NCBI GenBank assembly: GCA_965217895.1
Contig: CBDCJV010000002.1
Span: 1,664,001 to 1,728,000, forward strand
Source: Waterburya sp.
Lineage (GTDB): Bacteria > Cyanobacteriota > Cyanobacteriia > Cyanobacteriales > Xenococcaceae
Reading direction: 5' to 3'
Length of the DNA: 64,000 bases
Part shown: one piece after another, positions 50,188 to 52,911 of the stretch
Numbering within the stretch: position 1 is the first letter of the stretch
Layout: every line of letters starts with the position of its first letter
Notes under the pieces: generated by a model
The model's input: only the letters and a program-made list of their open reading frames with translations
Database searches by the model: none
What the model was told of the DNA's origin: nothing
Translations under genes and position numbers: made by a program

Positions 50188-50676
50188 ATGGGTAAAGAAA
50201 TCGAAAGAAAGCATCTAATCAAAAAAGATGAATGGCAGTCTTATAAGCAATATTCATCAGTTACAGGAACAAAATACTGTCAGGGTTACATCCCTACAGG
50301 TAACACGACGACAGTTAGACTGAGAACTATTGATAAGCAAGGCTATATAACAATCAAAGGTGAAACCACAGGCTATACTCGTTCAGAATTTGAATATCCT
50401 ATCCCGCTAAAGGATGCTGAAGAGATGCTAAGTACCTTATGTCTTAAACCCTTGATCGAAAAGATTAGGTATAAAGTCAATCAGAATAATTTAACTTGGG
50501 AAATAGATGAATTTTTAGGAGACAATGCGGGATTAATTATCGCCGAAGTAGAATTAGAAAGCGAAGACCAGCAAATAGATTTACCTCATTGGATCGATAA
50601 AGAAGTCAACGATAAAAAATATTTTAATTTCAGCTTGGCTAAATATCCCTATAGTCAATGGCAAGATAAATCATAA
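50188..50676 (+). CDS. CYTH-domain protein
   Basis: EIERK, RSEFEY, WEIDEF, AEVEL. Confidence 0.92.
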   Translation: MGKEIERKHLIKKDEWQSYKQYSSVTGTKYCQGYIPTGNTTTVRLRTIDKQGYITIKGETTGYTRSEFEYPIPLKDAEEMLSTLCLKPLIEKIRYKVNQNNLTWEIDEFLGDNAGLIIAEVELESEDQQIDLPHWIDKEVNDKKYFNFSLAKYPYSQWQDKS

Positions 50677-50728
50677 ATAACGTTTTGTTGTTCTAAACAT
50701 CTAAAATTTTAGAAAACCCAAGCTCAAT

Positions 50729-52305
50729 TAGGACTTACGCAGTCTAACGAGTTTCGCCCCCCCAGACCCCCTGCTGGGTAGGGCTGTTTCATTCTAGAGC
50801 TAAAGTGCGGTAAATTGATATAAAACCTAATTTAACCGCTCAATAACTTTAAAAAACTTTGATAAAAGCTTAATTGACTATTTGAAACAAATACCTGATG
50901 AGCGAAAAGCAGGTGAATGAATGAGCATCTCAGTATACTCACAATAGTCAAGGTCAATGGATTGCAATTGATGGCAAAAGTTTGAAAAATACTGTCAACG
51001 ACTGTTATGGACAACAGCAAAACTTCGTCATGATGGTTTCGGCTTTGACTCATGAAGGCGGGGAAATTTTAGGCATAAAAGTTAGGGAAAATAAGAAATA
51101 AAGTGAGATTGTCGCCGTGCAAGACTTATTAGAATTGCTGCATTTAAAAGGAGTGGTGTTCACGATGGATGCTCTACATTGTCAAAAAAAACAGTCTCAG
51201 CAATTATCGACAGTGGTAATAACTACCTAATTGTGGTTAAAAGAAATCAAAAAACATTACATCGGCAAATTGAGCGGAGGAAATGCGTGGGTTTCCCGCG
51301 CTTATTCCACTCCGCTGTTGAATTTCAAGCAACAAGTACAAAGGCGATTAGTTGCTTTGAGCAGATCGAGAAGACGAGAAATCGACTAACTCATCGAACT
51401 GTAGAAGTATTGGCTCCTCCATCAAACATTGATTCTCAATGAGTTGGAGTTCATAGTATCATCAAAATTTTCCGTTCGCGAACAAGAGGTAATCACGATT
51501 ACGAATCGGATTCGGCGACTTATTATATTAGTTCTTTACCCAACTCCTTCGGAGTTAAGTAGCAAGTAGCAGCCGCTCCACGCGGCTCGACTTTCCTTCG
51601 CAAAGGCGGCGAACGACCCGTTCGCGCAGATAGCAATTAAGAAAAACTCCGAAGTTGGATATGCAGCCTCTTCATTGATGAGGAAAAGGTGAAAAAATAA
51701 TTCAACTCTTGAATACATGCGGGCAAGCCCTTTGTCTGACACAGGAGCTATCGCTCCATGTCGTCGTCTTCGACGACTTTGCAAGCTTTGCTTGCTGTGG
51801 CAGAGGTTGAACTTGCAGACGCGCTTCGCGTCTGGCCGTTGCGGAGCAACGTCGGCAGCCTCCAGGCTGCGCTACTTGTTATCTGCTACTTGTGAACAGC
51901 AACTTCTTGGCTTATTCCCCAAGGTATTGGCCGACATTGGGGTATCGAGAATCGTTGGCATTGGGGAGGCACTCAATACGGCGACGCAGGTTCGCCGTAT
52001 TGAGTGCCGTTTAAGGATGTCGTAACGAAAGAAGATAACAGCCCTCAACTTCACGGCAAAGCATCCACAAACATCTCTTTGATTAAAAGTTGGGTTATTA
52101 ACCTACTGAGAGTTCATGGTTTCGATTCTATGACTGAGGCAATCAGTTATTTAAGCCATAATTTGCCATTATTACTTTCTTTGTGTCACTGATAGGTGTA
52201 GTGAATAGATTTATTCGCGATCGCATCTTCTATTTTGAGAATGAAACAGCCCTACCAAACTTGGGGGGCTAGGGGGGCAAAACTCGTTAAACTGCGTAAG
52301 TCCTA
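50729..52305. mobile_element. TAGGACTTACGCA-type MITE split by an ISAs1 insertion
   Basis: Complementary arms at 50729-50771 and 52263-52305. Confidence 0.75.
50779..52254 (+). mobile_element. ISAs1-family element with inactivated transposase
   Basis: Inverted repeats TAGGGCTGTTTCATTCT/AGAATGAAACAGCCCTA; AIDGK, MDALHCQKKT, YYISSL, HWGIENR motifs; stops and three insertions. Confidence 0.9.
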
Positions 52306-52319
52306 TTAAAATAGAAAAA

Positions 52320-52590
52320 GAATAATCATTCAAAAAATTATCGACGAACTAAACGAAATTCCTGAAGAAAAACTCACTCATACCAACTCTCTATGACAAT
52401 GCATTAAATAAAATCTACCCCCTTAGCGTCTTTGCGTCTTTGCGAGAGTTTTAAGCTCAAATACTTAAGTGCAACTTCAAGGAGAAATGGTATCAGATTT
52501 ACGAATTGATACATTTTTTTCGTCTTGGAGTAAACCAACAAAACGATCAACCTCGAACTCCTGGGTTACTCCAAGGCAGAGGGCAGAAGG
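52320..52590 (+). pseudogene. DUF2281-like antitoxin interrupted by a MITE
   Basis: IIQKIIDELNEIPEEKLT|QIYELIHFFRLG...RTPGLLQG once 52381-52492 is removed. Confidence 0.55.
52381..52492. mobile_element. 112-bp MITE
   Basis: Inverted repeat TACCAACTCTC/GAGAAATGGTA, TCA duplication, internal CTTTGCGT repeats. Confidence 0.7.
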
Positions 52591-52724
52591 TTTTGAATCT
52601 CGTTAAGACTCTCATCTAAAAAGTGTACTTTGAGAATCAAATTTATAGTCATTCCAATTAATTTCCTTATAGTAGTTTCGTATTGATTGTCAGGTTGAAT
52701 ATTATTTGTTACTTGCTATATACG

Positions 52725-52772
52725 AAGCGGTTATCCGAAGGTGTCCTAAAGGATGCCTTCGGATAACCGCTT
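52725..52772. repeat. 22-bp-stem hairpin
   Basis: AAGCGGTTATCCGAAGGTGTCC-TAAA-GGATGCCTTCGGATAACCGCTT. Confidence 0.8.
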
Positions 52773-52911
52773 TAGGGATCGGACACCCTACAGCGATCGC
52801 CTGTAGCCCAAGAATTCTCTCTAAAAGCGATCGCAAAAATAGCCGTAGGTATCTTCAATAAAATAGAATATAGTCAGACTAGGTCAAACTACTTTGTTCT
52901 CAAACCAAACA

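Follow-up and report, generated by a model that had tools for sequence, protein, structure and literature searches.

The 64,000-nt stretch analysed here (the window; positions 1,664,001 to 1,728,000 of the forward strand of contig CBDCJV010000002.1, from Waterburya sp.) contains a 357-bp segment crowded with short hairpins, inside a decayed insertion sequence (IS) of the ISAs1 family. This segment is a non-coding mobile DNA, situated 3′ of a TTAC tetranucleotide without duplication of its target. Insertion next to TTAC, the absence of a duplication, the fixed orientation and the TTAC/TGAA ends, like those of IS608, therefore point to a non-autonomous element of the IS200/IS605 type, similar to the palindrome-associated transposable elements (PATEs), that would be mobilised as folded single-stranded DNA (ssDNA) by a Y1 (HUH) transposase acting in trans; we assign this reading a probability of roughly 60%. 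The initial annotation of the window had instead proposed a mobile structured RNA, intron- or ribozyme-like, or an extreme pile of nested mini-elements. Below, genomes are designated by G-numbers (G000 being that of the window), loci by L-numbers and copies of the element by c-numbers.

Insertion next to TTAC and spread in the genome

The element, its target and its host IS are located as follows.

50776..52256, + strand: decayed ISAs1-family IS carrying the element, defined by matches to NCBIfam NF033564 on fragments and by alignment to a related copy in G020
51536..51539, + strand: TTAC target tetranucleotide, owned by the host (codons L-P of YYISSLP), from empty ISAs1 sites and the count of left ends in the genome
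51540..51896, + strand: mobile element, 357 bp, starting with C(C)AACTCC and ending in ...CTACTTGTGAA, with borders fixed by aligning copies and by two empty sites

Comparison of filled and empty sites places the borders at TTAC (51536-51539), element (51540-51896) and CAGCAACT, with one ambiguous C. Related ISAs1 sites in G020, G019 and G009 are empty and read ...TATTACATTAGTTCT(T/C)TACCGCC(N)AC.TCTTC..., an uninterrupted YYISSLPP..; because these insert-free copies already have the site, the TTAC at 51536-51539 is sequence of the host gene. A second pair is given by copy c337 (C2:337313-337672), whose host is another multi-copy sequence: there CATGTTAC is followed by the element and then GCCGAGG, versus CATGTTAC followed directly by GTCTAGG in G020. 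Neither of these two related pairs shows a target-site duplication. The insert had initially been described as bounded by CAACT repeats, and CAACT is present at 51541 and 51900, 359 bp apart, yet it is neither a border nor a target duplication; judging from the aligned sequences, the repeats are coincidental and the true borders are those set by the empty sites.

The association with TTAC is general. Using a search pattern that does not itself contain TTAC, all left ends in the genome (27/27, corresponding to 17/17 distinct flanks) were found to be preceded by TTAC at 1-3 nt; TTAC also precedes all five copies in the sister species G019. Among family-type records from other genomes and metagenomes, TTAC precedes 11, and TCAC or TGAC the other two. 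All aligned copies have TTAC and then C upstream, ...CTACTTGTGAA at the end and unrelated sequence beyond; CTACTTGTGAA itself has 27 family-type occurrences, followed by unrelated flanks, plus two unrelated occurrences. Right flanks do not resemble left flanks when copies are compared. The element thus fails the classical definition of a miniature inverted-repeat transposable element derived from a DDE transposase (terminal inverted repeats plus target duplication), there being no duplication at the two empty/filled pairs, and its extreme termini, CCAACTCC... and ...CTTGTGAA, are not inverted repeats of each other.

The genome (5.29 Mb, 39% G+C, two contigs) holds 14 full-length copies, eight of them in ISAs1 at the same site and six at loci unrelated to the IS; together with the two related empty sites, these bear out the earlier suggestion that the insert is mobile. 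When 40 further genomes from this genus and order were searched, G019 alone was found to have full-length copies (n=5, 72-73% identity), and 19 gave short partial matches. Scanning one genome per species for the left-end motif gave nine loci, six of the family type (with record titles naming Xenococcaceae, Pleurocapsa, Waterburya and one metagenome-assembled genome of Calothrix), and a further 12 loci came from metagenome contigs, seven of the family type; all family-type copies from both scans are in cyanobacterial records. Two metagenome loci, L116 and L118, continue with other sequence after the left end and reach the contig ends, with no open reading frame (ORF) for a transposase. The element had no match in a plasmid collection, and a surface-level full-text search of the literature found no published account of the family.

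The initial annotation had also placed the insert inside an ISAs1 transposase gene, which agrees with the NF033564 matches; the gene is decayed. This IS has its inverted-repeat cores at 50776-50794 and 52239-52256, with shared ends that extend ca. 20 nt beyond them, and its transposase reading frames are interrupted by stops. Relative to the G020 copy it has lost 212 bp at 50915/50916, which are retained in c1733 and G020, and has gained three inserts: 48 nt at 51270-51317, the 357-bp element, and 45 nt at 51966-52010. Since the host transposase is dead by its stops, the 212-bp deletion and the two further inserts, splicing out the element would rescue nothing. There are eight copies of this ISAs1 in the genome, all with the element at the same place; the defective IS would have spread later, carrying the element as a passenger.

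The 48-nt insert is an imperfect hairpin between TTGA direct repeats, and is present neither in the G020 copy nor in c1733 of the same genome; the 45-nt insert is a hairpin that the IS copies of G020 do not carry. The three insert lengths are all multiples of 3, which we take as chance because other copies of the element, of 300-363 bp, follow no such rule. The IS copy c1733 (G000:C2:1733129-1734651) has an internal deletion of its own and a patch of ca. 280 bp, 20-25% divergent, which stops at the element's left border and, from its sequence, has the appearance of gene conversion, with a divergent IS lacking the insert as donor. In G020, ISAs1 (nine copies, otherwise intact; L054) can be read through only if the frame shifts within a run of eight A near L054:1600; programmed slippage or a sequencing error in the homopolymer could account for this. 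The element also lies in an ISAs1 of G019 (C2:1618253-1619491, L053), oppositely oriented and next to another TTAC, and therefore ISAs1 was struck at least twice.

Backbone, hairpin cassettes and folding

Relatives with no GC-rich hairpins (L112, 197 nt, L117, 177 nt, and a mini form of ca. 75 nt, L110) reveal how the element is built. Alignment to them resolves the window copy into an AT-rich backbone and four GC-rich blocks, none of which is present in every copy. From left to right, the backbone runs through the mini-hairpin AACTCC-TTC-GGAGTT, the (AAGTAGC)n array, a conserved stretch containing AACTCCGAAGTTGG and a core to (GCTACTT)n GTGAA. The secondary GC-rich blocks make up more than half of the window copy, and its three-hairpin cassettes have 64% G+C versus 42% in the rest of the element. 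The components, with the alignment of 15 copies designated A1, are the following.

51542..51556, + strand: left-end mini-hairpin AACTCC-TTC-GGAGTT, 2-3 nt after TTAC; in all copies, helix 100% paired
51557..51570, + strand: left heptamer array, (AAGTAGC)x2, pairing with the right array in ssDNA folds
51571..51625, + strand: left three-hairpin GC-rich cassette, its middle hairpin degenerate here; missing in L112, L114 and L117
51626..51658, + strand: conserved left-proximal segment, with invariant columns in A1; common to a family of ca. 254 bp
51659..51714, + strand: AT-rich backbone core with two weak hairpins; kept in the hairpin-free L112 and L117
51715..51734, + strand: GC block of ca. 20 nt, ACATGCGGGCAAGCCCTTTG; missing in c1876, the G019 copies, L112, L114 and L117
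51740..51799, + strand: middle three-hairpin cassette, closed by CACA/TGTG; missing in c2503, c4809, c141, L112, L114 and L117
51816..51870, + strand: right three-hairpin cassette, built like the left type but inverted; missing in L112, L114 and L117, another allele in G019
51871..51896, + strand: right heptamer array and terminus ...GCTACTTGTGAA, from the occurrences of CTACTTGTGAA

The left mini-hairpin has a compensatory variant, AGCTCC/GGAGCT, and the stretch 51645-51658 (AACTCCGAAGTTGG) is complementary to the left end of the element. The middle cassette replaces TTCAG/TTTAG in the loop of a backbone hairpin, where c1876 and G019 have another allele, and L114 has other GC-rich inserts at other positions of the backbone. 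In the predicted ssDNA folds of both the window copy and L112 the heptamer arrays zip, setting the mini-hairpin, the TTAC and the TGAA ends side by side. The alternative of a pile of nested mini-elements thus survives in a modified form only: there are nested blocks on a hairpin-free backbone, and three-hairpin blocks recur elsewhere. Exact 16-mers of the window copy are rare in the genome outside the 14 copies, which means that the hairpins do not recur here as high-copy sequences; it is only in their geometry that they show independence.

Two side observations concern sequences shared with other repeats. A second family of ca. 254 bp (G000:C2:4524047-4524300 and 6-9 more loci) shares with the element its left 130 nt and its right end, but differs in the centre, which has a three-hairpin cassette of its own; some copies keep a 17-nt remnant of the left cassette, cut loop to loop. 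The 24-nt stretch at element positions 175-198 (51714-51737) has dozens of 100% matches in G020, G023, G011 and G021, inside other multi-copy units of ca. 60 nt that resemble terminator-type hairpins (L137-L141), and is almost confined to the element in its own genome.

The density of hairpins is far above expectation. The 357 nt contain 12 perfect local hairpins with stems of at least 5 bp, versus a mean of 1.95 and a maximum of 9 in 1000 dinucleotide shuffles, and 10 with stems of at least 6 bp (shuffles: mean 0.52, maximum 5). As two of the 12 are registers of one stem, they occupy 11 distinct places, in line with the initial count of at least 11. Folding is also stronger than in the shuffled controls proposed at that time, with -149 kcal/mol for RNA of the + strand (z -6.2), -146.7 for the - strand (z -5.0) and z -7.2 for ssDNA, the two strands being about equal in folding strength; the ssDNA fold of the hairpin-free L112 has z -7.9. 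The long-range closure reported for CAAGTAGC/GCTACTTG is real and consists of the two inverted heptamer arrays pairing, and the pairing of CCTTTGTC with GGCAGAGG forms with two G-T wobbles, surrounding a three-hairpin block. No credible protein had been recognised in the insert, and its internal ORFs (82, 102 and 45 aa) indeed match no Pfam family; copies differ by indels of whole blocks, and the element is too short for a transposase. Promoter and terminator signals in the element were at shuffle level.

Cassettes of three hairpins form a genome-wide class. Across the chromosome we counted 95 runs of at least three adjacent perfect hairpins (94 without one duplicate), versus 14 in a first-order Markov control sequence. 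GC-rich runs account for 56 of the 95, of which 52 measure 53-55 nt; they comprise 25 distinct sequences, with 26 runs within the 14 copies and 30 elsewhere, mostly in other heptamer arrays. The cassettes (52-60 nt) have loops and linkers in common (TGGA/TCCA, CGAC, GGCG) and differ in their stems, and the three of the window copy sit within the heptamer arrays and a loop of the backbone. As a separate observation, 79 (AAGTAGC) arrays with n>=2, plus variants, serve genome-wide as arms of several unrelated repeat families (for instance at G000:C2:1107172-1107347, 2917695-2917765 and 4864950-4865160), and three-hairpin cassettes also lie within arrays of the heptamers TAAGAGC and TAATAGC.

Comparison of close copies shows how the stems change. 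In A1, 87.9% of cells pair and both sides have changed in 17 of 73 pairs, giving a covariation score of 0.204 versus 0.108 in shuffled alignments (reached in 0/500) and at most 0.079 with slid partners. However, in the left cassette the window copy differs at 25/53 positions from its seven identical IS-borne sisters, versus 0-6/273 for the remainder of the element in the same eight copies; their IS arms show 12-24 differences over ca. 720-1140 positions, excluding the mosaic patch in c1733. A cassette so divergent next to a nearly identical remainder indicates that it was exchanged whole, in place; the entry of a second element into the same TTAC is less likely. From these alignments, the both-side changes in helices are not stepwise compensations, and are carried by whole-cassette swaps and by blocks absent from relatives.

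Loops are inverted between close copies (TCCAC/GTGGA, CTT/AAG). Compared with its seven sisters, the window copy has a rewritten 5′ arm in the 45-nt hairpin of the host IS (51966-52010), now fully complementary to the 3′ arm, and an inverted loop, CGCAGGT instead of ACCTGCG. The relevant passages of PMC8794818 describe loop inversion and arm perfecting as marks left by template switching, a process by which perfect stems arise and are kept. Template switching during replication may likewise keep the stems of the element perfect. Single mismatches in the stems (2 G-T, 0 A-C, 6 other) show no strand-specific wobble, at numbers too small for a strand test.

These data also bear on whether the element is a functional structured RNA riding on a transposon-like unit, be it an intron, a ribozyme or a guide scaffold of the omega-RNA type for TnpB. 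The strong fold, the both-side changes at 17 pairs and the covariation score would fit such an RNA; moreover, PATEs are stated in a passage of PMC10055086 to 'often encode omega RNAs', and the genome has one TnpB gene. However, the covariation is explained by cassette swaps and by blocks absent from relatives, the stems are near-perfect Watson-Crick helices, the loops invert, and both strands fold alike. A search of Rfam with both strands of window positions 50600-52800, at E up to 1, returned only a chance match to RNase P at 52147-52328 (13.6 bits vs 97), and loci L002, L012, L116 and L118 gave no match at E up to 0.1. The single TnpB locus showed no similarity to the element, including its right end as an omega-RNA scaffold, in a comparison that used no omega-RNA model, and the host gene is dead anyway. 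The intron- or ribozyme-like reading of the initial annotation is therefore unsupported: in its sequence the element shows no sign of an intron or ribozyme, its 'junctions' appearing as separable DNA cassettes, and a functional RNA of any of these kinds is barely credible.

Candidate enzymes for mobilisation

The footprint described above has a close model in IS608, which is described in the pertinent parts of PMC3201880 and PMC5027513 as inserting 3′ of TTAC without duplication, with TTAC at its left end and TCAA at its right end, and moving through a single-stranded circle. In the sections of PMC3119063 devoted to them, PATEs are non-coding, have near-terminal palindromes and neither terminal inverted repeats nor target duplications, occur also in genomes where all IS200-type genes are broken, and often receive insertions of other small repeats, for which they are preferred targets. 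By analogy, a Y1 transposase made elsewhere would act in trans on the ends of the element, which would move as a folded single strand.

Several results weigh against a mobilisation of this kind. We found no Y1 relative with the ends of the element in its own genome, nor at the Y1 loci of sister genomes examined (32 loci, 31 distinct, in sets of 20 and 12 that both include L087, taken from 150 matches listed and 129 more). An IS605-type element present in three copies in G042 has unrelated ends and is not at TTAC. The only Y1 gene in the genome belongs to the REP-associated tyrosine transposases (RAYTs) and is split by a frameshift (G000:C2:2354836-2355400; L021:1462-1990), and G020 has 0 Y1 matches despite carrying related elements. 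The left hairpin is 2-3 nt from TTAC, versus 19 nt in IS608. The subterminal heptamer arrays are inverted, and so resemble the inverted repeats that PATEs by definition lack, and the family as a whole has no conserved hairpin at the right end. Lastly, orientation relative to GC skew is unbiased, with both orientations on both putative replichores, the skew itself being weak. Y1 genes occur in 30 of 38 other genomes of the genus, and none was found next to the left ends in the nine species-wide and 12 metagenome loci that were scanned.

The RAYT might itself move the element, as it would a REPIN: it is the only Y1 gene present, and the RAYTs, a group of HUH enzymes, have hairpins as their substrates. 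This is very unlikely, because apart from the frameshift that splits the gene, the GTAG-type hairpins that flank it (GGTAGGGTGGGCA...) have nothing in common with the element, matches are of at most 10 nt over the RAYT locus +/-2.5 kb, and the element greatly exceeds REP doublets in length.

Alternatively, the element could be a gene-less repeat that moves by another mechanism, like the 'small mobile repeats' (SMRs) of Haloquadratum, which have inverted repeats and leave no target duplication, or through a recombinase that reads the structure of the zipped heptamer stem plus TTAC. Such a mechanism would account for the inverted heptamer arms and for the failure to find a Y1 gene with matching ends, an intact Y1 being absent from two of the three family-carrying genomes; the near-identity of copies implies fairly recent movement in this genome, and the mobilisation of the SMR class is called enigmatic in the passage of PMC3119063 that treats it. 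On the other hand, an oriented, duplication-free footprint adjacent to a tetranucleotide, with TTAC/TGAA ends, is the known signature of IS200/IS605. No Y2 gene was found in the genome, by a search that was equally silent in all control genomes. The two IS110-like genes each occur once, with ends unrelated to the element. We consider another mechanism possible, but less probable than a Y1 transposase acting in trans.

A more specific form of this idea is that backbone and cassettes together are mobile DNA defined by structure and independent of a canonical IS200/IS605 TnpA. Another enzyme would read the folded strand (the mini-hairpin and the zipped heptamer stem at TTAC), and the arrays would dock swappable cassettes of fixed geometry and freely rewritten stems; we regard this proposal as unlikely. 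Whichever enzyme moves the backbone, the cassettes may spread through recombination between heptamer arrays or by an enzyme of another kind.

Relation to known mobile elements

A candidate new ribozyme or intron is thus removed, and is replaced by a layered arrangement of selfish DNA: cassettes in a TTAC-targeting mini-transposon, in turn inserted in a defective ISAs1 that has spread to eight sites. Its sister copies catch loop inversion, arm perfecting and the exchange of a whole cassette, and thereby exhibit 'compensatory' covariation without an RNA function, a caution for covariation-based discovery of RNAs in the repeat-rich genomes of cyanobacteria. The nearest known counterpart of the intron first envisaged are the IStrons of Clostridioides, in which a group I intron is fused to IS605-type ends; there a structured RNA on an IS605-type element would excuse insertion into a gene. 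Unlike IStrons, the element has no match to group I or II introns, and its structure consists of separable DNA cassettes. Very small mobile repeats also exist in cyanobacteria: SDR1-8 of Nostoc, described by Elhai and colleagues in 2008, are reportedly of 21-27 nt, some of them palindromic, and conserved in sequence.

For the nested three-hairpin cassettes, SMR-A of Haloquadratum walsbyi appears to be a good analogue, being gene-less, free of target duplication and found preferentially within PATEs and IS605-type elements, according to the pertinent part of PMC3119063. In that account SMR-A is ca. 110 bp long and conserved in sequence, whereas the cassettes of this genome measure 52-60 nt and keep geometry, linkers and loops while every stem varies.

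The element as a whole compares best with IS608 and with PATEs, such as HqIRS of Haloquadratum and the PATE-like elements of Geobacillus stearothermophilus, as portrayed in the relevant parts of the published accounts (PMC3201880, PMC5027513, PMC3119063, PMC10055086). Like them, it lies 3′ of TTAC in fixed orientation and with no duplication, is short and non-coding, has a subterminal hairpin and nested small repeats, and occurs in genomes without an intact tnpA; its right end is TGAA, versus TCAA in IS608. It is unlike them in that its left hairpin abuts TTAC, the right hairpin is not conserved, heptamer arrays zip the ends together, and over half of its length is GC-rich cassettes. A precise IS608-like footprint is thus kept in genomes where no matching Y1 transposase was found, which is the same puzzle that the PATEs of Haloquadratum pose.

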